Origin: a virus | DNA length: 64,000 nt | IMG/VR virus record: IMGVR_UViG_3300027791_000009 | Location: 55,870-119,869 of that record | Strand: one strand, 5' to 3' | Made by a program: the position numbers and the translations under genes | Notes under the pieces: model-generated | What the model saw: only the letters and a program-made list of their open reading frames with translations | Database searches by the model: none | What the model was told of the DNA's origin: nothing | Shown: piece after piece, positions 8,501 through 51,688 of the stretch | Layout of the letters: each line of letters begins with the position of its first letter | Numbering within the stretch: the stretch's first letter is position 1

Positions 8501-8608
8501 CAATTGAACGCCTTTACTGCGTTTCAGATTAAGATTGTACTAAAAGGAACTAATACTAGTTACCCACCAATCTTACGAGACATGAGAGGTATCGCATTAG
8601 CGATTTAA
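2507..8608 (+). CDS. Large virion structural protein (VrlC/DUF4815-like)
   Basis: PYYDDF..K.FHRILFRP..AVQARELTQSQTILQNQ, APGAHR, GKAYVKGYE and RFKNGFVVDNF motifs; 2033 aa following gp8. Confidence 0.8.
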   Translation: MPSPTDFNLSPYYDDFSEDKAFHRILFRPAFAVQARELTQSQTILQNQIEKMGNHIFEQGAQMIPGEITYDLQYYAIKLTSFTGTSNLTDFVGIEVTGQTSGVVAKVINSDVATSTDPATLYVKYTKTGTGNQTPDFVAGETILGVLNGSTNISGVVTSAETGSAASVASGTYYINGYAVNVSKQTIVLDKYTNTPSYRVGLTVTDSIVTPNLDVSLVDNAAGSSNANAPGAHRFKIDLTLSKLTTTSVEDSSFIELLRLEKGTLQNRVRTTEYSILEDTLARRTSDESGDYTIRPFDLDIREHLDDTAGNRGIFTAAAGGDANKLALGLSPGKAYVKGYEVDKIGTTFVPVEKPRSFGNENGFNTIFDVGNFLNVSNAYNSPDINFVTGKTEAFKGLQLKLASEAYTAGNIPTNVQNRVKDIGRAKSKGYEFNATTGAGISTASNISPSSSNIFKHYLFDVEMFSHIKIPTNVVFTNGETITGTTSGANGIKESVSTNTTSAIATSTAANPVVITMSADLEVSDGDAITIAGVATQTELNDIVFYVRQKVGGVAKREFELYNADDVAIDGTGHTGAGSGGTITTSCVVLSSVQGQFIPGETITGGTSSNTAVVKANVFGNQGFTHYGSSDVKEVTMAGSPVYTAQADLSATYGENKTLSGNISISASTSDVTGFNTQFLTELKVGDSVQFATTTGTILTRTVINIVNSSSIRLDSAISTTAVSNSLIIRRRGKLQDASKNISLFSLPYTTIKTLKTANNSGISDTSFIVRKTFVGSLSSTGDITITANTGETFVAQQEQDYSVTIMSAGGSSSAGTAGDKISTTGNNHEGNACFTLGGSPVGRSLTLDFGANHSDHEVKIIATISKSAQNEKSKNLVSNSTATITTSAAATANHISLGVADGYQLVSVKMAADFSTTPTASDTDITTRFTLDSGQRDNFYDIARLVRKEGSLAPSGQLLITFNYFTHGSGDFFSVDSYSGIIDYTAIPSYTSDTSGETYQLRDTLDFRPRVDDASTINSGTQDRTYPATASIEVVKFKTNVTTDHEFYKGRVDKLFLNKEGAFEVLKGAEANVPQEPGSIDNAMHLYTLSLPPYTLSPDDVSYETVENRRYTMRDIGAIDKKIDRIEYYTQLSLLETAAQSLQIQDADGFDRFKNGFVVDNFNGHGIGEVTNGSYRCSIDYAKGELRPLFNQDAVKLEEIDEDGTTLVATDRAAANYQKSGDVLTLPFTEIDLINQPFASKAINVNPFAIFSWMGTIDLTPSSDEWRETQRTPDLVVNSTTGAWDQLQRQSGITDQDEISLGTVWNEWQTNWTGRALTSSTTASGGRFMRGRAIVQRTETTSINQVNQSRSGITTTAVPQTIRTSMGDRVVSVAFVPFIRSRDVAFKATRLKPNTRVFPFFDNVNIATYCTPDGGSVGGNLITDGAGAVEGVFTIPDPKVNTNPRWRTGERTFRLTSSSTNSQDAAAVATAANAEYIARGLLNTVRDTIVSTREFRGVQQTVTDSQTILQTSTRAGTQIVGWVDPLSQTFMTDEPGGVFISSVDLFFSTKDANIPVTVQIRNTVNGYPGSKLLPFGEVSLNPTAVNTSTDGSVKTTFTFPAPIYIQDKVEYAMTVLSNSNDYNMYVGRLGETNIGSNRTISKQPYAGVMFKSQNGSTWTAEQNEDMKFTMKRCEFSNVVGTVHLGSKELPAQNIKQNGLRTTNGSGVIRVFYSNHNMHDTNSVVTISGVPSGTLNGIASTDINGTYTSISNITLDSFDITTSGTANTDGDIGGTTILVTGNKQFDVLNLGGLQTMTVPGTNIEPFIRTTSSKSLHGAQTPYSLVSESNRQSVTLVDDIYFTAPQAVMSGPNETTRMAGQKSFYTIMKLSTTNNKLSPVIDLDRSSAFCVANRLNNPTSGNTPNYVPETTAKGSSTASQYITKPVTLINNSTALDIRLTQVIRDTSKVEVYFRTTSADEVRTIGDIDWTPFNAGGVEDNSVSKSKDDFDFKEYQYSQEQLNAFTAFQIKIVLKGTNTSYPPILRDMRGIALAI

Positions 8609-8612
8609 AATT

Positions 8613-8840
8613 ATGACAAGATTTCTGAAAGTTGAACAACAAGAATTTTTAATAAGAGATACGGAATCAGGTGGTATCATTAATACAAACTCAAGCGAAT
8701 ATGAGTTGTATATGAAAAGAATACAAATGCGAAAAGGTAATCTTAACCAAATGAAGTCAATGTGTAGAGAGATAAATAGTTTAAAGCAAGAGTTGTTTGA
8801 AATAAAAGATTTAATAAAAAATATGTGTAAGGATAAATAA
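8613..8840 (+). CDS. Small coiled-coil hypothetical protein
   Basis: LIRDTESGGIIN...EINSLKQELFEIKDL; tightly packed between structural genes. Confidence 0.65.
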   Translation: MTRFLKVEQQEFLIRDTESGGIINTNSSEYELYMKRIQMRKGNLNQMKSMCREINSLKQELFEIKDLIKNMCKDK

Positions 8841-8842
8841 AA

Positions 8843-10144
8843 ATGGCTGTAAGACAGGTAACAGAAACAGATAGTTTAGATAAATTACGAATAGAATTTA
8901 ACGCATTAGCGTCCTCAGATTTTGGTGATATTGCCACTCTGGATGCTACTTTATCTGCTACTTCTGTAATTGGTGCTGTTAACGAAATCAATGGTATTGC
9001 AATTGCAGCTGCTGGTTTCACATTAACAGATGGAACGAATGTACAAGGTATTGCCTCTGGTAACACATTAACCGTAGCGAGTGGTACAGGTCTTACTGCA
9101 ACGGTATCAAATCCAGATACATTAACAATCGGATTAAATACAAACTTAACTGGTCTATCAACAATTGATGTTGCAACAACAGCTGAGATTGCGAACATAC
9201 AGATTGGTACTTCTTCAATTACTTCTGCAAGTGGTACAATTGATTTTGGTAACGAACAATTAAATACAACAGGTGGTATATCTGCCGGTGGTACACTTGT
9301 TGGTGCTGGATTAACAATCAATGGTGCTTCAATGCAATTTGAAGGTGCTACTCCTAATAGTTTTGAAACTACATTACGAGTAGACGACCCATCACAAGAT
9401 AATGTAATTACACTACCTGACGCTAGTGGTACTCTTATTACTTCTGGTGATACGAATACGGTTACACAAACTATGATAGCAGATAATGCTGTAAGTACTT
9501 CACAAATTGCTGATAACTCGGTTACGATTGCAAAACTATCAGGATTTAATTCTGCAACATTAACGGTTGACACTTTAGTTGCAAATACTATTACAGGTAC
9601 TGCTTCATTATCAAGTGCTGTAGATTTAACTACTGAAAATACTCAAAACGCAACAAGATATTTAACTTTTGCTGATAGTACTTCAGGTTCAAATGTTCTA
9701 AAAGCAGATTCAGGATTATATTACAATCCATCAACAAATATTTTAACAACAACTGCTACATCAGCAAGATATGCTGACTTGGCAGAAAAGTATAAATCTG
9801 ATAGAGAATATCCAGTAGGTACCGTCTTATGTATAGGTGGCACAGCTGAGGTAACTATATGTACAGAAAATCATTGCACAAAAGTTATTGGTGTTCAATC
9901 AGAAAAACCTGCCTTTATTATGAATGGCAGTTTAGAAGGTGTTACCTCTACGGTAGCAATGACAGGAAGAGTACCAGTAAGAGTATGTGGTCCTGTAAGA
10001 AAAGGCGATATGTTAGTATCTTGTAGTATTGCAGGATGTGCTAGAGCTGAAGCAGAACCAAGAAACGGTGCATTAATTGGAAAAAGTTTAGTCAATGACG
10101 ATTCTAACGAAGAGAGAGTTATAGAAGCTGTTGTTGGTAAATAA
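8843..10144 (+). CDS. Tail fibre/whisker-like protein with C-terminal intramolecular-chaperone-like (peptidase G2-like) domain
   Basis: Thr/Ser/Gly-rich body; C-terminal RYADLAEKY...GRVPVRVCGPVRKGDMLVS. Confidence 0.6.
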   Translation: MAVRQVTETDSLDKLRIEFNALASSDFGDIATLDATLSATSVIGAVNEINGIAIAAAGFTLTDGTNVQGIASGNTLTVASGTGLTATVSNPDTLTIGLNTNLTGLSTIDVATTAEIANIQIGTSSITSASGTIDFGNEQLNTTGGISAGGTLVGAGLTINGASMQFEGATPNSFETTLRVDDPSQDNVITLPDASGTLITSGDTNTVTQTMIADNAVSTSQIADNSVTIAKLSGFNSATLTVDTLVANTITGTASLSSAVDLTTENTQNATRYLTFADSTSGSNVLKADSGLYYNPSTNILTTTATSARYADLAEKYKSDREYPVGTVLCIGGTAEVTICTENHCTKVIGVQSEKPAFIMNGSLEGVTSTVAMTGRVPVRVCGPVRKGDMLVSCSIAGCARAEAEPRNGALIGKSLVNDDSNEERVIEAVVGK

Positions 10145-10155
10145 GGAGATATATT

Positions 10156-10635
10156 ATGGACGAACAAACAATCTTATGGATTTCCAGATTAAAAGAAGAA
10201 ATCCAATCACACACTAGATACGAAGCAAGACAACTATTTTACATAGATGAAGAAGGACTTGACCGTGAGGTTAAAGACCATATGTCTTATGGAGAATGGA
10301 TAAGAGAGTACGATAGATTTAAAACTATTAAGGTGGAAGGCTTAGAAGATGTAGCCTGGTTAAAAGAAGTTTTAGACGAAGTAGTATTGAATATCACAGG
10401 AAAGAAAAGACAAGATATTCATTTATTTGTAAATCAGAAACCAGGTATTAGTTTTAAAGAACATAAAGATGATAAAGATGTTTACTTATATGTTGTCAAA
10501 GGCAAAAAGAAAGTATCTTTAGATGGTGTTATTAAACCAGTATATGATGATGAAGGAATATTCATAGAACAAGGTGTAAAACATTATGTTGAAAACGAAG
10601 CAGATACTTGGGGGTTAAGTATAGGAGTTATATAA
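10156..10635 (+). CDS. Cupin/JmjC-like metal-dependent oxygenase
   Basis: SFKEHKDDKDVYLYVVKGKK...GVKHYV gives an HxD...H facial triad; AGGAG RBS. Confidence 0.6.
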   Translation: MDEQTILWISRLKEEIQSHTRYEARQLFYIDEEGLDREVKDHMSYGEWIREYDRFKTIKVEGLEDVAWLKEVLDEVVLNITGKKRQDIHLFVNQKPGISFKEHKDDKDVYLYVVKGKKKVSLDGVIKPVYDDEGIFIEQGVKHYVENEADTWGLSIGVI

Positions 10636-11666
10636 TGAATTGGATGTTTTATTTAAAAACAACCGAAACCTGCAACTTGAATTGTAAACATTGTTTTACT
10701 TCAGGTTCAAATGGTCCTAAAGTCTATTGGAATCCAGATAAAACCATTAAGTGGTTACAAGATTTCAGAAAATACAATTTTCACAAACACGATACAGCAC
10801 ATTTAGAACTACACGGTGGCGAACCGTTTTTAGTTCCTGTGTCTGAAATGCAATATGTCTATGAGAACACAAAAGATTTGTGGATTCAACAATCAATGGG
10901 CATAACTTCTAACTTAACATTTAAACTAAAACAAGAACACATTGACTTCATTAAAGGTCCACTTAAAAATAGATGTGGAACTAGTTGGGATCCTAACATA
11001 AGATTTGCAAATGAGAAACAAGCAAACTTATGGCGTAAGAATGTAGAGACTTTAATTAGTGAAGGTGTTGATATTAAACTCTTCATATCAGTAACCAAAG
11101 ACACAATTAGAATTGAACCTATTGAATTACTTAAATGGGTTAAAGATTTAGGTGTAAAAGAAATGGCACTTGAAAGATTGACTGGAAATGGTAATGCAAA
11201 CTTGCATCCAGAGATATTTCCTAGAAATATAGAACAAGATAAGTGGTTTTTAAAAATGCACGAGCAATCTATTCAGTATAACACAAGAGATTGGTTTGAT
11301 AATGAGTTTTTTGAAACAATTTACTCAAAATTTGATACTGGTTCAACAAAAGAAGGCACTTTCTGCCGAGATTGTGAACAAAAACTATTTACACTTAACG
11401 CAACTGGCACAATAGGTGGTTGTCCTAATGCAGCTCCCGAGTTTAATTTTGGAACTATAGATGACCCTCTAGTAGAACTTATAAATAGTCCTAAGAGATT
11501 AGAAAATGTTGCTTGTGAAGTAGCAAGAAATCCTAAATGCTTTGAGTGTGAAGTATTTAAGTATTGTGGTGGCGATTGTCACCAATTAGCATGGCAAGAC
11601 GACATATGTGGCGCTCCTAAATCTCTTATGAAACACTTAAAAAAACAAAGTGAGGCGAAATGGTAA
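10635..11666 (+). CDS. Radical SAM/SPASM-domain enzyme #1
   Basis: CNLNCKHC (CxxxCxxC), HGGEP, C-terminal CFECEVFKYCGGDC...C. Start reassigned from 10608 to the ATG at 10635 (TAATG coupling). Confidence 0.9.
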   Translation: MNWMFYLKTTETCNLNCKHCFTSGSNGPKVYWNPDKTIKWLQDFRKYNFHKHDTAHLELHGGEPFLVPVSEMQYVYENTKDLWIQQSMGITSNLTFKLKQEHIDFIKGPLKNRCGTSWDPNIRFANEKQANLWRKNVETLISEGVDIKLFISVTKDTIRIEPIELLKWVKDLGVKEMALERLTGNGNANLHPEIFPRNIEQDKWFLKMHEQSIQYNTRDWFDNEFFETIYSKFDTGSTKEGTFCRDCEQKLFTLNATGTIGGCPNAAPEFNFGTIDDPLVELINSPKRLENVACEVARNPKCFECEVFKYCGGDCHQLAWQDDICGAPKSLMKHLKKQSEAKW

Positions 11667-12433
11667 CTTTAAACAACCCGATAACAAGTCAAAATATAGT
11701 TGATAGATTTGAAGAACTGGTAACAGATGTAGCAGACCACCATATTGTATGGGGTACTGATAATCTACCAGGACACTCTTCATTTACTTCTGCTGATTTT
11801 GGTGGTGTTGTTGACGGATTTGAATTAACACTAACAGGTGTGACTGGAACTTATACAGCAGGTGAAACGGTTAACTCTACAATAACTGCAACAACTGGTA
11901 TCGTAGTTAGTTATTCTAGCAATGTATTAAAATTAAGAACAATTAATCCAGGTGCTGGTCAAACAGGATTCTTACAAAACGATATTATATCAGGCACTTC
12001 TTCAGGTGCTGTAGGTACGGTTAATACTTTAGCAGTAATAAGTGCTGTATCAATTGGTATCACAGGTTCTAATATCGGTAATGCAGGTTCAGTAATTACT
12101 GCAAACAATATTTACGGTACACTAAAAGCAGAAATGAATAATTATACTAATATCAAAAATACATACGCTATAGTTAGTATGACAGGTGCAGGAACACAAT
12201 ATTCGGATACACAAATTGCACACTTAACAACTGCACAAAGAACAACATTAAATCCATCACAACCTAGTAGTTTACAACCTGGTCAAACAATTGACGATAC
12301 AAATTTAGAATCGTTTATGTCGAGCCTTGCAAACGCATATTCTACTGAAAGAGGTAACACTTATACATTAACAAAAACTATATGTCATAGTAGCTGTCAT
12401 AGTAGTTGTCACGGAAGTAGAGGAAGAAGATAA
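11660..12433 (+). CDS. Virion-like protein with C-terminal CHSSCHSSCHGSRGRR tail; candidate radical SAM substrate
   Basis: Thr/Gly/Ser-rich; the only three Cys are in the terminal (CHxS)3 repeat; overlaps the end of rSAM #1. Confidence 0.6.
   Translation: MVTLNNPITSQNIVDRFEELVTDVADHHIVWGTDNLPGHSSFTSADFGGVVDGFELTLTGVTGTYTAGETVNSTITATTGIVVSYSSNVLKLRTINPGAGQTGFLQNDIISGTSSGAVGTVNTLAVISAVSIGITGSNIGNAGSVITANNIYGTLKAEMNNYTNIKNTYAIVSMTGAGTQYSDTQIAHLTTAQRTTLNPSQPSSLQPGQTIDDTNLESFMSSLANAYSTERGNTYTLTKTICHSSCHSSCHGSRGRR
12383..12418 (+). repeat. 3 x 12-bp tandem repeat encoding CHSS-CHSS-CHGS
   Basis: tgtcatagtagc tgtcatagtagt tgtcacggaagt. Confidence 0.9.
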
Positions 12434-13098
12434 TGATTAATACTATTGTACCGATTGAATTGAAAGACTTAAAAAAATACTTTGAAGATAAGACAGAAAG
12501 TTATCTTATTGATTACGAAAACAGCACATTAAAAGGTGCTCAGTTTCTAACCTATTTAAGTAATTTAGATATACCTTGTGATATATTAAATATGGACGAA
12601 GAACTAATTAGTGAATATCTTAACACACAAATGTTAGTAAATATACCTAAATTAGAAAAAGAAATAATCGCTGTATTATTTGAACACAAGGGGTTGTCAA
12701 AGACAGATAAATATAAGAGTGTTATAGAAAAGAACAAAGAAATACTTGACAAGTGGGAAGGCAAATTAGAAAGTCTACCATTGTATAATATGTCAATCGT
12801 TGGTGAAGGTGCTTTTAATGAATTTGTTGAGAGTTATCCTAAAGACGAGACAGAAGATGTTAGAGGTATTAACTTTGTTTCATTATTAAAACACAAAGAA
12901 TTTTATAGTTATTATCAAATACAAAAAGAAGGTATTGTTAAGAACTATACGAAGTACTTTAAAGATTATATGTTTAAAGGTAAATCTTTATTTGAATATT
13001 GGGCGACAGAAAGTAATCCACTATTCTTAATGACTTGGGCAATTGCCGAAGGTAAATTTGATACAAAAGAATATTTAAAAGGTAAAGAGAAAAACTAA
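12433..13098 (+). CDS. Hypothetical protein (rSAM cluster)
   Basis: 221-aa ORF coupled by TAATG to the CHxS protein; no recognised motif. Confidence 0.7.
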   Translation: MINTIVPIELKDLKKYFEDKTESYLIDYENSTLKGAQFLTYLSNLDIPCDILNMDEELISEYLNTQMLVNIPKLEKEIIAVLFEHKGLSKTDKYKSVIEKNKEILDKWEGKLESLPLYNMSIVGEGAFNEFVESYPKDETEDVRGINFVSLLKHKEFYSYYQIQKEGIVKNYTKYFKDYMFKGKSLFEYWATESNPLFLMTWAIAEGKFDTKEYLKGKEKN

Positions 13099-13099
13099 T

Positions 13100-14215
13100 A
13101 TGCTACACTTATTTAATAAAGTCTATTTAGCGTTTGACGATTCAATTGATTGTCATACAAACAGATATGTAATATCAGCAGAAACTGGTAATGAAATGCA
13201 CCAGGAACTGCAAACTACATACAGAGGAACTTTAATTAACTATTCACACAATGTTAATGCAATGGCAGGTAAGTATACTGACTTAACTGGTTTCTTTGAA
13301 GATGTAAAATTAAAACAAAGTACTCTAGGTACTAAAGTTATTATTTACTGCGATAGTGAAGCATACTTAAACTTATCAGTAACCTGGTTAAAAACTATGT
13401 TACCATTTGTTGACCAAACAGCAGTACAGAAGTTTTTAGATATTAATTTACACCACGAAAAAATTATTGCAAATACACAATTGCAACCTACTCACACGCT
13501 AGCGCTAACAAAAATTAATGCTGGTCTAGGAGATGTTGCAGGATATTTTAATGTATTACCTACACTTGATTTAGATAGAATTAAAGCTCTTAATTTAAAT
13601 TTCTCAATTGAATTATTATTAGGCGAATACTTTGCAGGTGCTGATACTCACCAAGCAAACTTATTGTCTACTTGGCATTTATTCTTAAAAAGATTTTATA
13701 AAGAAGTATTAACAGATAGTAGAGAAGGTGCTGCTCTAAATCTTTTGAATACTAATCAACAAACTGCATTAGGTTATACTAGTGATGATGTTGATTTAAA
13801 TAATGACAATCCATTTTCAGGTATTACACCATTAGCACCATTTGCTGACGAAGATGTATTTACGCAAAAACCTACTGCAAATGTAGGTGCTGTAAATATT
13901 GCAAACATTGACGGTCTTTCAACAGACAAACAAACTGCATTGAAAGCATTAATTAAAGACCTATATGATTTCCAAAACTCTCCGGATCCTGATTACTTTA
14001 TGAACCATTTAGATAAAGCTTGTGCTTCAAGTTTATCTTCTACTGACTTTGATACAATTATAACTGAAACCGTGAATAGTCCATCTAGTCTATCTTTTAT
14101 TCCTAGATTTGATATTGGAAATATTAATTATACATTTTTACAATATCTCTTCTCATTAAAGAAATCTAACGATACAGACAAACTAGGAAAATACAGACTA
14201 TTCGCAAACTCATAG
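13100..14215 (+). CDS. Hypothetical protein (rSAM cluster)
   Basis: 371-aa ORF starting 1 bp after the previous stop; no recognised motif. Confidence 0.7.
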   Translation: MLHLFNKVYLAFDDSIDCHTNRYVISAETGNEMHQELQTTYRGTLINYSHNVNAMAGKYTDLTGFFEDVKLKQSTLGTKVIIYCDSEAYLNLSVTWLKTMLPFVDQTAVQKFLDINLHHEKIIANTQLQPTHTLALTKINAGLGDVAGYFNVLPTLDLDRIKALNLNFSIELLLGEYFAGADTHQANLLSTWHLFLKRFYKEVLTDSREGAALNLLNTNQQTALGYTSDDVDLNNDNPFSGITPLAPFADEDVFTQKPTANVGAVNIANIDGLSTDKQTALKALIKDLYDFQNSPDPDYFMNHLDKACASSLSSTDFDTIITETVNSPSSLSFIPRFDIGNINYTFLQYLFSLKKSNDTDKLGKYRLFANS

Positions 14216-14223
14216 GAGTTTAA

Positions 14224-15276
14224 ATGCGAGAGTTTTTAATAGACCCCAAAAGAGACCCAGAGCAAGAGTACACTATTCATTTATTTGAATTTTGTAATTT
14301 GCGTTGTAATTTCTGTTGGCAGAACCACGACAATAAAATCGGTGTTGATAATGTGGTTGACAAACTTCCTTCTATAGAAAAATTTATCTCAAAAGAAATG
14401 TATATGAAGGTCACCTTTAATATTATGGGTGGCGAAGTCTTTGCACCTGCAATCTATAACAAAGATTTAAATGACGGATATAAACTTCTAGTAAAAGGCA
14501 TAAAAAAGATATGTCAAAAACACAATAAAGAATTTTCAATCAATTGGGTGTCTAACTTGGTTACCTCAGATGAAGGTAATGAACTTATTATGGACTTACT
14601 CACTTGGTCCAGAGAAGAAGATATACCTAGTAGACTTACAACAAGTTATGACCCACGAGGTAGATTTAATAAAAAAGACTTTGAGATATTTAAATCTAAT
14701 GTAGAATTTTGGGGTGATGAAGTAACCTGTTTTTCTTGTTTACTTACAAAGCCTAATATTAACTTTTATTTAAATGAAGGTGATGAATACTTTGACTATC
14801 TGTATAAACAAGGTAAGTATATTTACTTTGATTATTATATGCCAGATGAACACGCAAAGTTTAATATGCCTGGCGATGAACTATTATTAAAGTTTTTTAA
14901 ACATTGTGTTGACAAATATCCTAATGTTCATCCTGTTAGAGATTGGATATTTAACAAAAAGAATTATGCAAGTTGTAGAGTTTCAAAACTTGTATTAGCA
15001 GATGGTACATTATGTCAATGTGGTAACCTTGTACAAGAAGAACAAGATATAAGTCAATACAAGTCGCCCATTAAACCAAGAGACAATAGTATAATAGAAA
15101 ACTCTTTCCTAGAGAAGTATAATTGTAGTAGTTGTGAATTTTTAGATAGATGTACACTTGGCTGTTTTATGAACCATGATTATAGATACAAGGAGGAGTT
15201 GGATGAATGTGTTTACAAGCTTACGCACCGATATATCGAAGATGTACGAGTACAGCGAAACTATATCGCAAACTAA
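14224..15276 (+). CDS. Radical SAM/SPASM-type enzyme #2
   Basis: CNLRCNFC, MGGE, C-terminal CSSCEFLDRCTLGC...C. Confidence 0.85.
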   Translation: MREFLIDPKRDPEQEYTIHLFEFCNLRCNFCWQNHDNKIGVDNVVDKLPSIEKFISKEMYMKVTFNIMGGEVFAPAIYNKDLNDGYKLLVKGIKKICQKHNKEFSINWVSNLVTSDEGNELIMDLLTWSREEDIPSRLTTSYDPRGRFNKKDFEIFKSNVEFWGDEVTCFSCLLTKPNINFYLNEGDEYFDYLYKQGKYIYFDYYMPDEHAKFNMPGDELLLKFFKHCVDKYPNVHPVRDWIFNKKNYASCRVSKLVLADGTLCQCGNLVQEEQDISQYKSPIKPRDNSIIENSFLEKYNCSSCEFLDRCTLGCFMNHDYRYKEELDECVYKLTHRYIEDVRVQRNYIAN

Positions 15277-15835
15277 ATTAGGCTATAATTTTCCTAAACA
15301 TATCGAAGTACAACTAGATTACTTTCCTGTTGAGAAACCATATCTTCCTAGAATAGATGGTAGACGAGCACATATGTTTTTATGGTTAGGCAAGAAAGAA
15401 GAGGATCCTGAACTATACGAGATTGCACAAAAAACAAAAGGTGAGAGACAATGGGTTCAAAATGGTACGCCTAGCACTTATATTAAGGGCGTAGGTATGT
15501 TTCATATCTATAATGAGTATGTTATAGTCGGTTCTTTAAAATATGCAGGATACATGAAGAACAGACCTCCAACAGAAAACAGAAAACTAATTAGACAAAT
15601 GTGGTGTGATACGATAAACATATTTAAAGGTAGAGATATATTATGTCCGTCTGGTACTTACTTTGATTGGTTACACCTGACAATGAATCAAATGAGAGCA
15701 CAGAAAGAACCATATCATAGAGAAATAATGTGGCAGTTTGGTTTTGACAAAGTTAAAGAAGGTAAACTAAAAGATTACTGGATTAGAAATAAAGAATCTA
15801 CTACAGGATTGAACTGGATAGGAAAATGGATTTAA
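15242..15835 (+). CDS. Hypothetical protein (rSAM cluster)
   Basis: Track ORF 15176-15835; the in-frame ATG at 15242 reduces the overlap with rSAM #2; start uncertain. Confidence 0.55.
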   Translation: MYEYSETISQTKLGYNFPKHIEVQLDYFPVEKPYLPRIDGRRAHMFLWLGKKEEDPELYEIAQKTKGERQWVQNGTPSTYIKGVGMFHIYNEYVIVGSLKYAGYMKNRPPTENRKLIRQMWCDTINIFKGRDILCPSGTYFDWLHLTMNQMRAQKEPYHREIMWQFGFDKVKEGKLKDYWIRNKESTTGLNWIGKWI

Positions 15836-16920
15836 TAATTAAACCTACTGAACTTTGTAATTTCAAATGCTCATTTTGTTCTAGTACGCAGCTTACAGAT
15901 GAGAAAAAGAACTGGTTAAAACATGACCAGATATTTCGTTTTTTAGAAAGATTCCCAGAAACAAAAACAATCATAGTAAATGGTGGTGACCCATTAATGA
16001 TGGAACCTAATTACTATTGGAAGATTATTGATTGGTTAGATGAAAGAGAATATACTACTTCACTTGCATTAACGACAAACTTATGGCCGTTCTATAAGAA
16101 ACCTAGTAAGTGGGTTGACTTATTTAATAACGAAAGAGTTGGTATCACAACTTCTTTTCAATATGGTGGTGGTAGATTAAAAGGTGACTATTCTGAATTT
16201 ACAGAAGAGGACTTTTATAAGTGTTCAGACGCAATGTTAGAACATTGTGGTTATAGACCAGACTTTATATCCGTTATTACAAGAGAGAATGAACACAACG
16301 CAATAAAGAATGTTGAACTTGCAAAGAAGATGTCCGAACAGAAAATACCTGAAGGCACATTACATAACTTCTGGAGAGAAGAGAAGACAGGTGTAGAATG
16401 TAAATTGAATTATGCAATGGCAAGTGGCGAACAAAAAGAGCCGTTTTTGTTATCAGATATATATGAGAAGTATGTAGAGATTTATAAGGCAGGTCTAGCA
16501 CCTTGGGAGTTTAATACTAGACAGATGATGTTAGCAATAAATGATACTGCTACAAGTTGTCCGTTAAGTAGAAAATGTGATGAAGGTATAAGATGTTTAC
16601 AACCAGATGGTGACTACTATAGTTGTGGTGCATTTGGTGATGATAAAGACAAAGCGATAGACTTTGAAGAAGAAATGAAAGGTAAGTTTTTTACACCTTT
16701 ACAAGATGACTTAAATTTATCTACAATGAAGAAAAGTTGCTATAGTTGTCCTATGTTTAACATATGTAATGGTTGTAGAAAGACCGTGAAAGATTATAAA
16801 GAGGCAGGAGTTGTAGAGAAACATTGTGAGAAGATGAAAAGAATTGGAAAAGATATTTTGGTTGCAAATAATAAATCACATATAGAAATGACACCTTATG
16901 AGAGAGAATATGTTAGTTAA
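15826..16920 (+). CDS. Radical SAM/SPASM-type enzyme #3
   Basis: IKPTELCNFKCSFC, NGGDP, YYSCG, C-terminal CYSCPMFNICNGC...C. Confidence 0.9.
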   Translation: MDLIIKPTELCNFKCSFCSSTQLTDEKKNWLKHDQIFRFLERFPETKTIIVNGGDPLMMEPNYYWKIIDWLDEREYTTSLALTTNLWPFYKKPSKWVDLFNNERVGITTSFQYGGGRLKGDYSEFTEEDFYKCSDAMLEHCGYRPDFISVITRENEHNAIKNVELAKKMSEQKIPEGTLHNFWREEKTGVECKLNYAMASGEQKEPFLLSDIYEKYVEIYKAGLAPWEFNTRQMMLAINDTATSCPLSRKCDEGIRCLQPDGDYYSCGAFGDDKDKAIDFEEEMKGKFFTPLQDDLNLSTMKKSCYSCPMFNICNGCRKTVKDYKEAGVVEKHCEKMKRIGKDILVANNKSHIEMTPYEREYVS

Positions 16921-17362
16921 GAATAATGTAATGACAAGTTTAGAACTCAATCATATGATTGCTGAACTAGGTAATCTAGGTAAAGAATATCCTATCTATG
17001 AGAAGAATGTTCACAAGAAATTACCAGACGACTGGAATTGGGTAGATAGTATTTGTAAATTAAATGTACCTGACATAAAACATTGTATTGTTAGATATGT
17101 TATTTCTGTAAATAGTAAAAACGAAGAAAAGAATATTATAGGTTTTCATACAGACAGCGATGTAAAAGGAGAGAAGACTATTATATTATATCTACAAGGT
17201 GATTTAAATAAAGGTGGACAAATACAAGTTGAAGATAAGACATATGACTTTAGACAAAACGCAATGTTTATTATGGACTCTCATTTAGTACATAGGGCAA
17301 TGCCTTATTGGGGAGAAAAGACAAGACTTGCAATTAAATGGAGATGGACAAGTGAGGGGTGA
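16898..17362 (+). CDS. 2OG-Fe(II) oxygenase
   Basis: FHTD...IILYL...GG...HRA...R jelly-roll motif; may start at the second ATG (16910). Confidence 0.7.
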   Translation: MRENMLVKNNVMTSLELNHMIAELGNLGKEYPIYEKNVHKKLPDDWNWVDSICKLNVPDIKHCIVRYVISVNSKNEEKNIIGFHTDSDVKGEKTIILYLQGDLNKGGQIQVEDKTYDFRQNAMFIMDSHLVHRAMPYWGEKTRLAIKWRWTSEG

Positions 17363-17873
17363 ACACGATTTATCAAATCTGGTAATAAATGGAGTGTGGC
17401 CACATAAAGACCTTGCACCATTTAAATTCTTTGAAGGTATACAAATACCTTTTGTAGAAACAGATAAAGAGTATACGATTGCTGTACATACTGAAAAGGT
17501 AGCACACGCACTCGCCACAACCCACAAATATTTGGGTGATAAATATATTAGTAAGGTGTCTAGTAAATACGAATTACACGGACGACCAAACATTGTCAAT
17601 GGTGTAGACTATGAAAGTACACTATGGCACAATGACTTGAAAGAAGGAGCTAACATTGCTATACTAATGTACTTTACAAATGCCTGTAATGAAGAACAAG
17701 GTGGTTCTTTATCAGTAAGACATAAACAAACAAAGTCATTGTCTTGTTGGTTATATCCAGGTAAGAACGATTTAATATTTTTAAATCATAGTAAAGTATG
17801 GGAACACAAAGTTGGTAAATTTAAATTAATTAACAATGAACGAATTGTAGGATGTTTTAATTATAATATATGA
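17328..17873 (+). CDS. 2OG-Fe(II) oxygenase
   Basis: WHND...ILMYF...GGSL...EHKV...R; start uncertain. Confidence 0.65.
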   Translation: MQLNGDGQVRGEHDLSNLVINGVWPHKDLAPFKFFEGIQIPFVETDKEYTIAVHTEKVAHALATTHKYLGDKYISKVSSKYELHGRPNIVNGVDYESTLWHNDLKEGANIAILMYFTNACNEEQGGSLSVRHKQTKSLSCWLYPGKNDLIFLNHSKVWEHKVGKFKLINNERIVGCFNYNI

Positions 17874-18430
17874 AAAATAAAAAATTTGAAAACGGCAGAA
17901 TACACGCCTCACAAGAACAAGATTTAGATTATTCAAATGGGTATCTAGCTCTATCAGTAAGTCCATTTGACAAAGACTTTGACATTGAAGTTGAGAAAGG
18001 TGTATTACCTCATTGCCATGAATTTATTAGAAAAGGTTTTCTTCCAATATCAAGTTGCGAAGGACATTTTACAAAGAAACACCATATGCCATTTTATATA
18101 ATGTTGGCGTTAGGTGGTAAAAACAAATTAGATAGAATAACAGATATCATTAATAAAACAAAACATATATCTGGTATATCATATAAAATAAAAGAACAAC
18201 AAGCAAATGTAAAGGGTGAACTATTAGAACGAGTAGATTACACTTTAGATAAAGAACAAGAGTATGCTGAACTGAATAGATTGTTTATGAGAAATCATAT
18301 TGACTATCATTATCTATGGATAGGACTATTTGAAAAAGAAACAATTTTAAGAAATATTTTGTTTAGTAGAAGTAAAAGAATGTTATTAAAGTCTATTGAG
18401 GAATTGAATTATGACGAAGCGGAAAATTAA
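17870..18430 (+). CDS. Hypothetical protein with SSCEGH motif
   Basis: 186-aa ORF overlapping both neighbours; GFLPISSCEGH. Confidence 0.6.
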   Translation: MKNKKFENGRIHASQEQDLDYSNGYLALSVSPFDKDFDIEVEKGVLPHCHEFIRKGFLPISSCEGHFTKKHHMPFYIMLALGGKNKLDRITDIINKTKHISGISYKIKEQQANVKGELLERVDYTLDKEQEYAELNRLFMRNHIDYHYLWIGLFEKETILRNILFSRSKRMLLKSIEELNYDEAEN

Positions 18431-19382
18431 TCTATCAATCAATCCATCTTATTTTTGTAATTTTAGATGTAATTGGTGTTATCTTACGCCTGACCAATTA
18501 GGTGATAATAAATGTATTGACCACTTTAAATTAAGTGAACTATTAAATGAAGTACAAACTCATAGAGACATAGAACACATTGATTTATATGGTGGTGAGA
18601 TAGGTGTATTAAAAGAAGACAACCTAGAAAAGATTACTAACGCAATTAAGATATATTACAAAGACAAGATTAATATAAACACAAACTTATCTATGGTAAG
18701 AAGTGAGTTTATGAATCCTGATTATTTTATAAGTGTTAGTTATGATATGGAGACCAGAGAGAAACACGAACAAGTTTATGATAATATGAGAACTTTGCCT
18801 GTTGAGTTTTCTGTTTTAATGTTGGCAACACCAGAAGTTATGAAAATATCAACACAAAGTATTTGGTCAAAGATGATTAAATTAGGTGTAGATAATAAAA
18901 ACTTTAAAGGATTTGAAATTAAACCTTATAGTACAAATCAAGCAAATCAATTAGGTGCGACACACGCTGACTTTGAAGACTTTATAATAAAGATGATAGA
19001 AGAATTTAAAAGTGTAAAAACAAGAGAAGGATATCAGCAAAATAAATTTGCATTTATTAATGAAGAGAACATAAAAGATTCTCTTAATCATCAATACAAC
19101 GCATATAGTGATGACCACTTATATATTACACCTAATGGTAAATTTGCTGTATTAGATTTTGATAAAGATGATAATGAGTATTTTTTAGAACTTGATAGTT
19201 TTGCTGATTACGAAGTATGGTGTCAAAAAGAGAAAGAACAAAATATTTCTGATATATGTCGTAAGTGTGAATATTTAGGTAGATGTTTAACTGAACACTA
19301 TAGATATGTTAAAACTCTAAAAGATGGTTGCAATGGATATAGGTATCTGTTAGATACTTATAGTTTTAGATATGGCAAATAG
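18411..19382 (+). CDS. Radical SAM enzyme #4 with Cys-rich C-terminus
   Basis: CNFRCNWC, YGGE, C-terminal CRKCEYLGRCLTEH...C. Confidence 0.85.
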   Translation: MTKRKINLSINPSYFCNFRCNWCYLTPDQLGDNKCIDHFKLSELLNEVQTHRDIEHIDLYGGEIGVLKEDNLEKITNAIKIYYKDKININTNLSMVRSEFMNPDYFISVSYDMETREKHEQVYDNMRTLPVEFSVLMLATPEVMKISTQSIWSKMIKLGVDNKNFKGFEIKPYSTNQANQLGATHADFEDFIIKMIEEFKSVKTREGYQQNKFAFINEENIKDSLNHQYNAYSDDHLYITPNGKFAVLDFDKDDNEYFLELDSFADYEVWCQKEKEQNISDICRKCEYLGRCLTEHYRYVKTLKDGCNGYRYLLDTYSFRYGK

Positions 19383-20166
19383 AGCGTTTCTTATAGGCAA
19401 TGGTCAAAGTAGAAAAGGTTTTAAATTTTCTACTATTCAAGGACGAGGTGTTATCTTAGGTTGTAATAATCTGTACAAAGATTTTGCACCTGACATTTTA
19501 GTTGCAATGGACCATCCTGTTATGCACAGCATTTATCATTCAGGTTATAGTTATACGGCTAAATGTTATTTTAGAGATTGGAATCCTGTACCACACGAAC
19601 ATTACGAGAATATGGTAAATGGTTTCTTTCCTGGGTATAGACATATAAGAGCAATTAGGAATTCAGGTTTACTTGTAGAAAATCAAAGAGTAGGTTCTAA
19701 TAGTTTTGTTTTGCACGGATACAATGATAAAGAAACAGGAAAGAATATGGTCAACATTAGTTGGTTGACAGGTGATAAAGTAAAAAGTTTTACAGATTTA
19801 GTTGACGGTGGTGACGAGTTAACTTGGGCAACAGGTCCTGCAAGTGGTTTTGTTGCTTGTAAAGAAGTAGCAGAATTGAAAGAAGTTTACCTAATAGGAC
19901 ACGACATATATAGTATGTCAAATAAATTTAATAACATATATGCTGGACAACCTTATTACAAGTCTGATAAACACCCTAGTCAATATTACTTACAAAATTG
20001 GATATTACAATGGCGTCAACTCTTCAAGTCGTATCATTCGGTAAAGTTTTATAAAGTAAATAGACAGAATATGTTAAATGTTAATATTCCGGAATGGAAT
20101 GAATGTAAGAATGTGGAGTATATAAGTTATGAGAGAATGGAAACTCAAACAAGAAGTATATCATAG
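19372..20166 (+). CDS. Putative glycosyltransferase-like (Maf/DUF115/sialyltransferase-like fold) protein
   Basis: AFLIGNGQSR...GCNNLYKDFAPDILVAMD...ATG...VYLIGHD pattern. Confidence 0.5.
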   Translation: MANRAFLIGNGQSRKGFKFSTIQGRGVILGCNNLYKDFAPDILVAMDHPVMHSIYHSGYSYTAKCYFRDWNPVPHEHYENMVNGFFPGYRHIRAIRNSGLLVENQRVGSNSFVLHGYNDKETGKNMVNISWLTGDKVKSFTDLVDGGDELTWATGPASGFVACKEVAELKEVYLIGHDIYSMSNKFNNIYAGQPYYKSDKHPSQYYLQNWILQWRQLFKSYHSVKFYKVNRQNMLNVNIPEWNECKNVEYISYERMETQTRSIS

Positions 20167-20539
20167 ATTAAATCCTACTCATAAAGATACATTGAATGAT
20201 AAGGAGATATATCTTATATGGGAAGATAATGATATTATTCTTAATGCGAAAAGACATTGGGTAGAACAAGTCGAAAGATTTATCTATCCAGCAAAGAGTT
20301 ATTGTGTGGCGATATGTTATGCAAAGTGGATAGAGAGAGATTATGGTGATAAGTTTTACGATTTGTTAAACGACAAGGACTTGTTATTTGGCAATGACCC
20401 ATACTTTGAAGTATATAAAGGAAAGGAACACATTTATGACCCAATCATAAAAGCGTTTCCTAAAGATGAACAAATGGGAATGATACCTGATATTAGAGAC
20501 TATTATGAAAAAGAAATTAGATATGATGGCAAAATCTGA
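20129..20539 (+). CDS. Hypothetical protein
   Basis: 136-aa ORF closing the cluster. Confidence 0.6.
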   Translation: MREWKLKQEVYHRLNPTHKDTLNDKEIYLIWEDNDIILNAKRHWVEQVERFIYPAKSYCVAICYAKWIERDYGDKFYDLLNDKDLLFGNDPYFEVYKGKEHIYDPIIKAFPKDEQMGMIPDIRDYYEKEIRYDGKI

Positions 20540-20551
20540 TATAAGAACGCT

Positions 20552-20559
20552 TATAAATA
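20552..20559 (+). promoter_or_regulatory. T4-type late promoter
   Basis: Intergenic TATAAATA. Confidence 0.8.
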
Positions 20560-20578
20560 ATAATACAAGGAGATAATT

Positions 20579-20815
20579 ATGGCAATTAAGATAAATGGTA
20601 AAGATTATGATGAAGAGAAGTTTGACGATAGAACTAAAAATTATGTTATCGCTAGACAAGAGTTAGTACAGAATAAAGCGAGAGTTGAAGTTGAACTTGA
20701 AAAAATTGATGTGTTAGTTAGATACTACAATGCTAAGATTTGTGAATTTCTAGGTATTGATCCAACTGCTCCAAAAGAAGAAGAAACTCAAACAGAAGAA
20801 CCGAAAAAAGATTAA
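20579..20815 (+). CDS. Small coiled-coil hypothetical protein
   Basis: AGGAG RBS; late promoter upstream. Confidence 0.7.
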   Translation: MAIKINGKDYDEEKFDDRTKNYVIARQELVQNKARVEVELEKIDVLVRYYNAKICEFLGIDPTAPKEEETQTEEPKKD

Positions 20816-28291: not shown

Positions 28292-31200
28292 ATGGCAACA
28301 ACAAAAACTAGAATTGGTAATCTGTTCTTCAATTACCAGGGTGATTATTCGAGTACGAAGGCTTATATAAAAGATGATGTTGTATTACACAACAATTCTG
28401 ATTATATTTGCGTTAAAAACTCGTCTACTACAGGAGTAGCACCTGATACTGGAACAGAAGCTCAACAAAAAAGATATGCAAGGGTAACAATTGCTACATC
28501 AGCAACTACTGGTGGTAATGCTTATAAATGGGACGGTGAATCTACTTGGCCTCAAACAGAAGTACAATACAAAATTGGTGATACATTAGTATTATACCAA
28601 GACGGTAATGACTTTGATGATAATAAGATTGCATTTTCTAACTCTGCTACATCAAAAGAAACAAATTTATTCCACACAGATGTAACCTATATGCTAGACG
28701 GTAAGTCTGTTGGTGGTGGAACTGCAAGTGGTAACTACTTTAACTCTGGTACATTTAACAATGCTACTAAAAGAGAAATTAGAATAGAGATTACTGCTGA
28801 AACTCCAAAAGAAATCTATATCTTCAACTTTGATAATCCTTCTGCTACTTGGGGACCTAAAATGGTCGTTGCCGAAAACCAAGTATGGAAAGAAATCAGA
28901 CAATCATTTAAATGGAGAGGTGACCATAGTGAAGCTTCTATAGTTTACAATCCAAATGACTTAGTACATATTAATGTTCCTGTAGATAATGACTTTTCTA
29001 CAAACAATCAATATTCTGGAGACCAAATACAAAATATTAGAGCAACTTATGTCTGTTTGAGAGAACACACATCTGGTGTTGCAGGTACTTTACCTTGGGA
29101 CCAAGATACTGATACAGACGCAAATAAGTATTGGGAAAGAATTTCAGAAGAACATCAATTTGATGACGAAACAATTACAGATAGTGGTGCTGTTGCAACA
29201 ATAGACACTTCATCTACTTCTGCTTCTCCTGCTAGACAAGCAGGATTTTATCCTTTCGTAAATACTACAAATATTACTGCCGCTGCTGAAAATAGTGGTG
29301 CAGGAAGAACGAACGGTTATAATACACCACAGGTTAACATAACGGTCGAAGGTTACCAATCTGCTAAAACGGTTGGCAACTTCTCTACTGCACATTACAA
29401 AAGAAAACCTGGTATTTACAGAAACTTAACTCCAACTTCAACTTCAGGTGCTGGTTCAAACGCAACATTTGATGTAGAAGTAGACAACAACGGTGCTGTA
29501 ATTTCAGTCGCTGTTACCAAGAAATCACTTGGTGGTCAAATGGGAGGTTTAGGATATGCTGTTAACGAAACAATTACTTTGGCTGACGCACTTATAGGAG
29601 CTGGTGGTGCACCTGACTTTACTTTTGATGTGACAGCAATTGGTACTTGGGGAGCTCTTCAAATAGAAATCGCTAGAGACCAAAAAAGAGGAATGCAAAA
29701 CGCACAATGGGAAAATAATAACGAACCTGAATTACTTGGTGGAGAAAACAACGCTGCTGCTGATGTATTAGCTGTTGACGCACAAGTATTATATTCTAGT
29801 GCAGCTGTACAATTCTCTGTGGTAACTACACAGAAAAAAGCAAGAGGTTATCAAAACTTCTTTAGTGGAAACAGATTAGAAGCAATGGCATTATGTAATG
29901 AAAACGGACCTATCGGTGATGACCATCCGTTATACAGATTGCCTGGACAATTCCAACAAGCGAATTGTTATAACTGGCCTTGTTTCATTAACGGTAGAGG
30001 TTCAATTACAAGTTGGGGTTCAAACTCTAACGGTCAAAACGGATTAGAAACTGGTTCTGTTATGACTGGTGTTGGTATGGTATTTCCATTCCTTGACTGG
30101 TACAGAAGTACAGATAACGGTGGTAGTGGTATTCATACTACTCCTGATGGAGAACCACCAAAAGCAATTCAACTATTATCTGGATATGAAGTTGGTATGG
30201 CACTATTTAATAATGGTGAAATATACCATTGGGGTTACGGAGGTCACGGACAAAATGGTGACGCTGCTGATTCTAATAGAGGATATCCGACAAGACCTGG
30301 TGGAACATACCAAGAAATTTATCAAGCTTCTAACACTTCAACGCATACATTGAAAGATACAAGAATTAAAAGAATTTACATTACTAATTGGGGCGGAGAC
30401 AATAACACAAATACACACTCTGTTTATGCGTTAGATACTAACGGTGAACTATGGGCTTGGGGTTACAATGGATACGGTCAATTAGGACAAAACAATACAA
30501 CTAATTTAAATAGACCTACAAAAATTAATAAGACTACTTACTTCAATGGTAATAAGATTGACGCTTTCTGGACTGCTGGTGCAGGATACGCTTTCTGTTT
30601 TGCTTTAGATGTAACCGGTAAATTATATACTTGGGGTTATAATGGTTACGGTGTTTTAGGACAAGGTAACACCACTAACTTATCAGTACCAACTCAAATT
30701 CCAACTATCGTTTGGGATAACGGTGCTGCTAATCCTGGTAAGATTAAAAAATTATTAGTAGACTCGCAACAATCATATCAAAGATGTGCCATTCTTACTG
30801 AAAAAGGTAAGATATATTGGTGTGGAAGGAATGAATACGGTTGGGCTATGATGGGCAATACTACAGATGTAAGTACATTTACAATTATGTCTAATGGTCC
30901 AGGAAGTGGAACATATTCTGATTGTCAAAATATGTGGTTTACAGGTAACGGAAGATACGCAAGTTTCTGGACTAAAGATAGTACAGACTCTATTAAGTGC
31001 TGTGGTTACAATGGTAACTATGAACTAGGTATTGGTAACTCAACAAACCAAACTGCTGCTATTTCACCAAAATGGCAGATTAATGGAACTACAACTTCTG
31101 ACTTACATAACATTAAAGACATCGGTTGTAATAGTGAATATGGTAACCAATGGATGTGTAATGTATGGGTATTAACATATGACGGATTTATGTTTAATGT

Positions 31201-31510: not shown

Positions 31511-31518
31511 TATAAATA
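31511..31518 (+). promoter_or_regulatory. T4-type late promoter
   Basis: TATAAATA immediately after the stop codon. Confidence 0.8.
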
Positions 31519-31547
31519 TAAAGAACAATTAAGATAGGAAAATAAAA

Positions 31548-35651: not shown

Positions 35652-35696
35652 CATAAATAGAAGTATAACAAATAAAGAAAACGGAGAAAAAACAAA

Positions 35697-36086: not shown

Positions 36087-36119
36087 AGACAGATTAATTA
36101 AAAAGAAGGTAATAGCAAT

Positions 36120-51686: not shown

Positions 51687-51688
51687 AA

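Follow-up and report, generated by a model that had tools for sequence, protein, structure and literature searches.

Why does a tailed phage keep, between its baseplate and fibre genes, a folded protein that ends in an array of Cys-His repeats and whose gene overlaps that of a radical S-adenosylmethionine (rSAM) enzyme? We addressed this question in a 64,000-nt stretch (hereafter the window) of the virus record IMGVR_UViG_3300027791_000009, positions 55,870 to 119,869, in which a 257-aa protein ends in (C-H-x-S)3-R-G-R-R. The whole record has 119,869 bases (34.8% G+C) and four radical-SAM genes, all of them in the cassette that contains the gene of this protein. An earlier note on the same DNA had described a structural-type protein with a core like that of a peptide made by the ribosome and then modified after translation (RiPP) and had proposed it as the substrate of the cluster. 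The tail is, in our assessment, most likely the substrate of the adjacent enzyme, which resembles the sulfatase-maturating anSME, and perhaps also of other enzymes of the cassette; we assign this reading a probability of roughly 0.55. An invariant, exposed tail on freely diverging bodies, next to a conserved enzyme with a SPASM domain, is, judging from the sequences, the pattern expected of an enzyme-substrate pair. The features on which the argument rests are as follows.

11660..12433, plus strand: tail-bearing protein of 257 aa, folded body and C-terminal (C-H-x-S)3-R-G-R-R; from the open reading frame (ORF)
12383..12430, plus strand: tail coding DNA, residues C242-R257 (CHSSCHSSCHGSRGRR); three imperfect 12-bp units
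10608..11666, plus strand: rSAM1, SPASM radical-SAM enzyme; CX3CX2C at residues 22-29, CX2CX5CX3C at 311

Translation of the ORF bore out the earlier description of the gene. The protein ends in TKTICHSSCHSSCHGSRGRR, followed by a stop; its only Cys residues are C242, C246 and C250, all within the C-terminal Cys-His (CH) repeat that precedes RGRR. The tail is encoded by a 12-bp tandem repeat, also as described, with the three imperfect units TGTCATAGTAGC / TGTCATAGTAGT / TGTCACGGAAGT, then AGA GGA AGA AGA TAA. The overlap with rSAM1 is real as well: the ATG of the tail-protein gene (11660) overlaps the rSAM1 stop by 7 nt, and its own stop codon shares 1 nt with the start codon, ATG, of the gene that follows (12433). 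In a six-frame scan of the window, CH..CH occurs at the tail site only. The protein matches no Pfam and no NCBIfam family, and phrog_35144 (function unknown) matches its residues 214-257 only.

Relatives of the tail protein were collected by a word-indexed search (294 at E<=0.01, of which 120 were listed) and by an exhaustive profile search, which gave 853 clusters (50% identity) at E<=1e-3, 613 at E<=1e-10 and 122 at E<=1e-30. The pattern CH..CH..CH..R.RR stands at the end of 112 of the 120 listed homologues, the other eight being truncated or chimeric fragments, and the canonical three-repeat tail is present in 134 of 147 newly listed representatives. The 13 non-canonical representatives have an extra Gly before Arg (3), have lost the second Cys, as in CHSNH.NTCH (2), have two repeats (1) or four repeats and a Gly-rich end (2), lack the RxRR end, finishing in ...CHGS[IL] (3), or are truncated (2); among these rare forms, repeat numbers from 2 to 4 occur. 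When 42 members, bacterial ones included, are aligned, mean column identity is 26%, and the only invariant columns are C242, H243, C246, H247, C250, H251, R254, R256 and R257. Conservation of the tail motif in homologues, on which the earlier proposal depended, is therefore well established. Cys residues outside the tail average 0.47 per family protein.

Two size classes are found in the family, a commoner core of 177-199 aa and the 257-aa form of the window, which consists of this core and an insert of ~77 residues. Among 82 distinct DNA tails, in which C, H and R are fixed by the search pattern used for collection, position 4 of the unit is Ser in 76, 70 and 72 tails for the three units and otherwise Asn or Ala. 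These tails use the synonymous codons of Cys and of His about equally, and for Ser they draw on both codon families, AGY and TCN, so selection acts on the peptide and not on a DNA repeat; an origin of the tail as a chance tandem repeat was ruled out by the same synonymous variation. In the ESM Atlas, the cluster of the tail protein itself was the only one retrieved, and searches of the cultured-phage collection, by tblastn with the tail protein and with a 188-aa relative and by megablast with the 10-kb cassette, gave no match; cultured carriers came to light through rSAM1 alone. The protein is a member of a large undescribed 'CH-repeat tail' family with the formula (Cys-His-x-Ser/Asn)3-Arg-x-Arg-Arg-COOH.

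The AlphaFold2 model of the tail protein, built on 93 sequences, has a mean predicted local distance difference test (pLDDT) score of 89.9 and a predicted template modelling score (pTM) of 0.84. Its elements are a helix (10-24), a beta insert (53-127), a helix (148-160), a hairpin (165-189), a helix (213-232) and a strand (235-241). Residues 242-257 are coil, with block pLDDT of 61 and then 48, and the tail is therefore modelled as a flexible appendix on a folded domain. The insert that distinguishes the longer size class can be delimited as a separate feature.

11813..12046, plus strand: inserted beta-barrel domain, residues 52-129; from the alignment gap and model strands, absent from 177-199-aa members

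By its model, this insert is a small barrel of a kind common among virion proteins. All rows of the VIA-wide comparison for the tail-protein model fall on residues 52-129, the best being a baseplate chain of phage KP1 (9f4a_AY; Z 7.7, root mean square deviation 2.3, 69 aligned), which is below the decisive level. In the viral model library BFVD, relatives of 178 and 173 aa that match over the whole length take the first two places (template modelling score by target 0.75 and 0.69), and the protein of phage Atu_ph07 has rank 30; in most of the remaining rows the alignment covers ~70-90 residues, the partners being cyanophage fibre, 'structural' and baseplate proteins. Foldseek of the model against the PDB gave no match at E<=1e-3, and the family profile gave none against PDB sequences at E<=1. 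The label 'structural-type' may fit the insert, which resembles phage fibre and baseplate domains. What can be said of membership among virion proteins is that the gene lies between baseplate and fibre genes and that the match with Z 7.7 covers residues 52-129 only.

Using the tail protein as query, we fetched 79 viral-contig loci and assigned their ORFs to the window genes by phmmer; the counts are conditional on the tail protein being present. A tail-bearing ORF was found in 77 of the 79 loci, the other two ending at a contig edge. In all 70 loci that have at least 1.2 kb of upstream DNA, the tail gene is preceded by an rSAM1 orthologue, and in 66 of these the orthologue lies directly upstream, within 35 nt. 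Four loci (L022-L024 and L057) have an extra gene, similar to the N-terminal part of the tail protein, between rSAM1 and the tail gene. In L057 a 308-aa N-terminal-like ORF without a tail (9052-9978) is followed after a 19-nt gap by a 140-aa tail-bearing ORF (9998-10420); the one split layout common to L022, L023, L024 and L057 suggests a real split/fusion variant and not a sequencing error.

In the window, the block runs p433, cupin, rSAM1, tail protein, p221, p371, rSAM2, p219, rSAM3, two genes resembling 2-oxoglutarate (2OG) oxygenases, p186, rSAM4, p264, p136. Its members other than rSAM1 and the tail protein include the following.

8843..10144, plus strand: p433, tail-fibre-like protein; phrog_22593, phrog_19602 'tail fiber protein'
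10156..10635, plus strand: cupin protein, encoded upstream of rSAM1; 30.9 bits for Cupin_2 (cut-off 27.2)
12433..13098, plus strand: p221, conserved partner gene directly 3' of the tail gene; phrog_20767
13100..14215, plus strand: p371, conserved cassette gene without known function; homology across loci
14224..15276, plus strand: rSAM2, SPASM-type radical-SAM enzyme; CX3CX2C at residue 24, CX2CX5CX3C at 301; phrog_1802
15826..16920, plus strand: rSAM3, radical-SAM enzyme with SPASM-like C-terminus; Pfam Radical_SAM 29.6 bits against 29.5; CX2CX5CX2C at 305
16898..17873, plus strand: two 2OG-Fe(II)-oxygenase-like genes (p154 16898..17362; ox181 17328..17873)
18411..19382, plus strand: rSAM4, radical-SAM enzyme with a shorter twitch-like Cys motif; CX3CX2C at 16, CX2CX5C only at 283; phrog_1802

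The gene p221 is found downstream in 70 of 73 viral loci, and the four rSAM families are all present in 53 of the 53 loci with at least 9 kb downstream. Upstream of the cassette, p433 occurs in nearly all loci and is conserved together with it; the cupin gene is found in most loci, and the presence of p154 and ox181 varies from locus to locus.

Since these counts depend on the tail protein, a reverse search was made with rSAM1 as query. By tblastn, rSAM1 found 15 cultured-phage records at 41-51% identity, all of them jumbo phages, with hosts in Ralstonia, Burkholderia, Agrobacterium, Sinorhizobium and Pseudomonas. Four of the 15 records were inspected (RSL2, Atu_ph07, pPa_SNUABM_DT01 and Phosso), and each has the order cupin, rSAM, tail protein, further rSAM genes. 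Their tail proteins measure 186, 296, 178 and 306 aa and have very diverged bodies, with the ends CHSSCHTSCHGSRGRR, CHSSCHASCHNSRSRR, CHTSCHTSCHSARGRR and CHTSCHASCHSSRSRR, respectively. According to record annotation, the block adjoins baseplate or large structural genes in all four. Depending on the lineage, a cassette contains between 3 and at least 7 rSAM genes: pPa_SNUABM_DT01 (L082) carries, at 48641-57623, seven annotated radical SAM genes together with 2OG oxygenases and a transglycosylase, and five of the seven are consecutive (48641-54118), with one 59-aa ORF among them.

A search for the tail pattern and its rSAM neighbours, which the earlier note had suggested, extended the pairing to bacteria. 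A degenerate DNA pattern of the tail was scanned over one genome per prokaryote species and gave at least 120 loci. Among the 125 matches listed, 23 are in-frame and terminal, the rest being off-frame G+C-rich noise; three of the 23 are Arg/His/Cys low-complexity runs, and 20, in 17 loci, belong to the family by phmmer. Again among the matches listed, an rSAM1-like ORF lies within the flank in all nine family loci that have 2-kb flanks. Two of these family loci look like phage DNA binned into metagenome-assembled genomes (MAGs), and L136 is of the window's 257-aa type.

Several family loci come from MAGs titled Bdellovibrionota or Bacteriovorax. In the genome G001, the cassette lies on a contig of 159,951 bases that also encodes, at a distance of 12-20 kb, DnaG primase and RpoD; it has two tail proteins in tandem and about eight rSAM genes, of which one includes a B12-binding domain. 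Among 301 sampled Bdellovibrionota genomes, nine match at E<=1e-5, some on contigs of 0.6-2.45 Mb; the Bdellovibrionota cassette is chromosomal. The matching genomes of this phylum number 13 (5 via pattern loci and 8 more in the phylum sample), and four were inspected in detail. Two of those from the phylum sample carry orthologues of rSAM1, rSAM2, rSAM3 (at 4e-96), rSAM4 (at 5e-77 to 1e-82) and p221, and their tails end in ...CHSSCHADCHYARGRR and in the variant ...CHSNHCSHSNHGSRGRR. Tandem tail-protein genes occur in L126, L171, L185 and G088. Beside the cassettes of G001 and G003 lie proteins of ~375-390 aa with a C-terminal Peptidase_S74 domain (L204:10361-11527, L204:11953-13113 and L206:17449-18573); this 'chaperone of endosialidase' is a domain kind found in phage fibres and spikes. 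Chimeric fibre proteins of Bdellovibrio are the subject of a published paper (PMC10769870). A comparison of p433 with the fibre-like Peptidase_S74 protein of Bdellovibrionota showed no similarity.

The constant neighbour, rSAM1, falls into the SPASM-domain class, with 33.1 bits for TIGR04085 (cut-off 27), the CX3CX2C motif and the SPASM Cys array; rSAM2 (19.8 bits) and rSAM3 (24.5 bits) are under this cut-off. No N-terminal extension or domain precedes the radical-SAM motif of rSAM1. Its 41 orthologues share 3 + 8 invariant Cys at a mean column identity of 65%, far above that of the tail-protein body. The best named-family matches of rSAM1 are DynA (42.6 bits), anSME (41.8), PapB (41.5) and HxsB (31.7), against equivalog cut-offs of 340-450. 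A profile of the orthologues reached six PDB sequences at E<=0.01, among which only anSME (4k37 and 4k36) matches nearly over the full length (4k37 at E 4.8e-6, positions 11-317 against 13-333); MoaA (2fb2) matches at positions 7-262 (E 5.4e-4). The single rSAM1 sequence gave no match against PDB sequences, and PADLOC found only weak viperin-type matches to the rSAM N-termini.

In concept, the closest analogue is the HXS anti-phage system, in which the effector HxsA with His-Xaa-Ser repeats is matured by the rSAM enzymes HxsB and HxsC, together with HxsD (PMC13128918). In both systems, a full-size protein with short H-x-S repeats is encoded beside paired rSAM genes, and both touch on the biology of phage entry into the host. 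The enzymes lie outside the HXS classes, with 31.7 bits for rSAM1 against HxsB (cut-off 370) and 29 for rSAM3 against HxsC (267.9), and the tail protein does not match the HxsA model, as it has no NCBIfam match. Unlike in HXS, each His is preceded here by an invariant Cys, the repeats are contiguous, C-terminal and finished by RxRR, and the system is phage-encoded and placed in a baseplate module.

Among solved structures, anSME, which modifies whole proteins and acts on the Cys/Ser-x-Pro/Ala-x-Arg motif of sulfatases, is the only full-length relative of rSAM1, and it was absent from the candidate chemistries of the earlier note. Like anSME, rSAM1 has ~350 aa, no N-terminal leader-binding domain and a full set of SPASM Cys, and the third repeat with the following Arg, C-H-G-S-R, has the C-x-x-x-R spacing of an anSME substrate. 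The likeness to 4k37 is at the level of the fold only, since rSAM1 scores 41.8 bits for TIGR03942 against a cut-off of 349.45 and so falls outside the class. Only the spacing of the sulfatase motif fits: the third repeat reads C-H-[GSNAD]-[SNA]-R across the family, position +2 being Gly, Ser, Asn, Ala or Asp and not Pro/Ala, and at +4 the first two tail Cys are followed by Cys in place of Arg. With no Pfam family, the body does not qualify as a sulfatase.

Thioether-forming SPASM maturases include PapB, which acts on a ranthipeptide, the SCIFF maturase, and QhpD, which acts on the QhpC subunit. The tail shares with their substrates a Cys-rich repeated C-terminal motif; with QhpC, too, the modified product is a protein subunit, and no peptide is cut out; PapB gives one of the three top NCBIfam scores of rSAM1, covering its full length. 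The scores, 41.5 bits for PapB (NF047865; cut-off 340) and 25.5 for SCIFF (TIGR03974; 425), nevertheless place rSAM1 outside these families, and the tail differs in having no conserved acidic acceptor and an invariant His without counterpart. Crosslinking of His by an rSAM enzyme is in print for HtkB, which is reported to form a link from His-C2 to Lys-C-beta (PMC11499958). The tail resembles triceptide substrates in its tandem three-residue units with His at position 1 and a small polar residue at 3; H-x-S/N occurs three times, but the third position of unit 2 varies. Matches to the triceptide maturases YhhB, XyeB, AmcB, FxsB and GrrM/OscB (E 5.5e-8 to 1e-3) are far under the cut-offs, outside the class, and mostly confined to the N-terminal radical-SAM core. 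The two chemistries named in the earlier note, a thioether and a His-to-Ser cyclophane, are not told apart by these scores, every match of the rSAM enzymes to a named maturase family being far below its cut-off.

Compared with a classical RiPP precursor, the tail protein is far from a short leader and core: it has 257 aa and a confidently folded body (pLDDT 89.9). The adjoining of the putative maturase and precursor genes and the tandem copies in L126, L171 and L185 are as in classical RiPP loci. As for leader recognition by a RiPP recognition element (RRE) or a PqqD-like domain, the rSAM1 motif begins already at residue 22, and the AlphaFold2 model of p221 (pLDDT 92.5) had no Foldseek match at E<=1e-3 and a best VIA Z of 4.2, over residues 1-54 only. 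The ESM Atlas gave nothing usable for p221.

These comparisons suggest a scheme in which the folded alpha/beta body displays the flexible C-terminal CH tail and the translationally coupled rSAM1 would act directly on this exposed tail; direct action is proposed because rSAM1 has no leader-binding domain and resembles anSME. The other three rSAM enzymes, the cupin/JmjC-like protein and the 2OG oxygenases might modify the tail further or might modify neighbouring fibre and baseplate proteins. The product would stay a protein, with no peptide excised, and would work together with the baseplate and fibre genes' products around the cassette. Candidate chemistries are conversion of Cys to formylglycine, for which we take the C-x-x-x-R spacing of the third unit and the invariant Arg to be suitable, a thioether from Cys to the Ser/Asn position, and a His cyclophane on H-x-S/N. 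The comparison establishes the family, the invariance of the tail, its disordered model, the synteny in phages and bacteria and the class of the enzyme; modification of the tail, the enzyme responsible and the reaction are inferred. In a bolder form of the scheme, which we think rather unlikely, up to four rSAM enzymes and oxygenases would turn the Cys-His tail of a baseplate- or fibre-associated protein into a new kind of 'warhead', a crosslinked, metal-binding or aldehyde-bearing structure for attachment to the prey envelope or its penetration; if true, this device would be common to T4-like marine phages, several jumbo-phage lineages and predatory Bdellovibrionota.

Several observations weigh against the tail being an enzyme substrate. 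Every match to a named maturase is far under its cut-off, so that the chemistry cannot be assigned, and scans of the cassette proteins for known families brought up neither a leader protease nor an exporter nor an RRE-like domain. With its three Cys, its three His and its basic end, the tail would also be a plausible ligand set for Zn, Fe or an Fe-S cluster, and the exact number of three repeats in 134 of 147 representatives would fit a defined metal site equally. Synteny speaks for functional linkage but gives no direction, and the tail protein could serve the enzymes. In RefSeq, ORF057 and ORF065 of RSL2 are annotated 'virion structural protein' and ORF068 just 'hypothetical protein'. The cassette is matched at >=99% identity by contigs that two studies obtained from RNA-labelled marine libraries, and one contig of 18,072 nt spans 8600-20600 by itself; as the libraries may contain DNA and carry-over is possible, they are a mere hint of expression and were not taken as proof of transcription. 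The central idea in the earlier note, a long folded 'leader' before a tail that the neighbouring rSAM enzyme would modify, is supported in part, and strongly so by comparative genomics: the pairing with rSAM1 (70/70 viral, 4/4 jumbo-phage and 9/9 listed bacterial loci), an invariance confined to the tail, and a tail modelled as low-confidence coil on a folded body.

The main rival is a tail whose three Cys and three His ligate a metal (Zn, Fe, Cu) or an Fe-S cluster and which is not a substrate, a doubtful but serious possibility. On this view, the protein would be a component of baseplate or fibre stabilised by metal (metal sites are common in phage fibres and spikes) or an accessory of the rSAM enzymes (cluster donor, electron relay or sulfur source), and these enzymes would act elsewhere, for example on the neighbouring fibre protein p433. 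Such a role would suit the invariance of Cys, His and Arg at tails whose Ser positions accept Asn or Ala, the prevailing count of exactly three repeats, the Cys-to-His exchanges that keep ligand character (CHSNHCSHSNHGSRGRR; ...CHSNHANTCH...) and the demand of the cassette for many Fe-S clusters, given the 3 + 8 conserved Cys of rSAM1 alone. It sits less well with members that have two or four repeats or lack the RxRR end: tandem paralogues and a varying repeat number are typical of repeated modification sites, less of one fixed metal site, and paralogues in tandem whose bodies differ are easier to understand as substrates than as a dedicated carrier. Metal binding also would not explain why a specific rSAM1 orthologue is adjacent in every lineage. 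The modelling of the tail as unstructured and unpacked against the body is a weak argument on the same side, as AlphaFold2 leaves metals out. Haem attachment of the c type at CX3CH sites was set aside for a cytoplasmic phage protein.

Pathways such as those of PQQ, mycofactocin and scaffold peptides offer the model for another, improbable, alternative, in which the tail is processed by the rSAM enzymes and oxygenases and cleaved off as a Cys/His-derived cofactor or metallophore, the body being its carrier. The C-terminal site and the presence of several oxidative enzymes in one cassette would agree with this, and the two conserved proteins p221 and p371 could be a chaperone or peptidase; no peptidase, ligase or transporter family was, however, recognised among the scanned cassette proteins, the cassette is always found within baseplate/fibre modules, and the body in the window has gained a virion-type insert domain. 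Least probable of all, in our judgement, is a tail without chemical role, a basic Cys/His-rich tag for docking or assembly with the acidic p221 and p371 or with nucleic acid, the rSAM enzymes having unrelated targets. The charges, +3 for the tail, net -9 for the body and acidic p221 and p371, are of the right sign, but docking needs neither invariant Cys and His at four-residue spacing over 853 clusters nor strict adjacency to one rSAM orthologue. Maturation of the tail by the adjacent enzyme accordingly remains the reading that we prefer.

The surroundings of the cassette are those of a virion module. PHROG matches identify the window as part of a T4-like myovirus, with baseplate wedge, fibre genes, neck, sheath, tube, portal, protease, scaffold and major head protein, and further with UvsY, a helicase, a late sigma factor and SbcCD-like nuclease subunits. 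A 2033-aa giant protein is of the type named VrlC in a pelagimyophage paper (PMC7029224), and the tail-protein gene lies in the variable region past it, between the VrlC-like baseplate gene and the fibre genes. Of the block members, p433 has no Pfam family. The cupin counterparts of RSL2 and Atu_ph07 pass the JmjC_2 threshold too, which suggests, on sequence grounds, a protein hydroxylase. The p154 and ox181 pair matches 2OG-FeII_Oxy_3 at 25.8 bits, slightly below the cut-off of 27, as well as the PADLOC 2OG model. The proteins at 16898-17362 and 44425-45057 match phrog_274, labelled 'DNA endonuclease V'; this label looks doubtful, because the former matches the PADLOC 2OG model and sits among oxygenases. 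A candidate late promoter motif lies within the block.

11480..11487, plus strand: TATAAATA motif, candidate late promoter; inside the rSAM1 3' end, 173 nt 5' of the tail-protein start

All 14 matches of TATAAATA in the window (1001-57298) are on the plus, coding strand, most of them 15-70 nt ahead of a gene start, a placement that fits late promoters of the T4 type; their total count is not above chance, as 12 of 100 shuffles reach 14. In the RNA-library runs X4 and X6, contigs join 18897 to 13693 with 16 other letters between, which may represent a related phage with another cassette order or a misassembly. In the fibre region (28292-38315), proteins of 1072, 1367 and 731 aa match PHROGs labelled 'regulator of chromosome condensation' and are probably RCC1-like beta-propeller repeats used in fibres. 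The protein at 39809-40528 matches phrog_7278, 'ferredoxin oxidoreductase', of the auxiliary-metabolic category, and might bear on electron supply for Fe-S enzymes.

The family is not described in Pfam, NCBIfam or the literature searched, which left most subscription journals uncovered; there, the four tail strings did not occur and no paper combined 'RiPP', 'radical SAM' and 'jumbo phage'. It would add a variant to the radical-SAM maturation of whole proteins, a process known from only a few cases (sulfatases, QhpC and lately HxsA). If true, it would be a phage-encoded whole-protein maturation built into the baseplate/fibre module, in a large family (853 clusters) that extends over abundant marine T4-like phages, at least four cultured jumbo-phage lineages and predatory bacteria. 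The genome papers already contain traces of it: 'radical SAM cassettes' are mentioned in passing and left uninterpreted (PMC7029224), a T4-like genome has 12 radical-SAM genes (PMC5332604), and radical-SAM genes are among the annotated genes of two other reports (PMC5468394 and PMC8066314). If true, maturation of the CH tail would explain the cassettes left uninterpreted in earlier genome papers. The function of the enzymes is directly testable, because cultured carrier phages exist, and for mass spectrometry the invariant tail of 16 residues offers an ideal handle. On the unprecedented (Cys-His-x-Ser)3 motif, the chemistry may itself be new.

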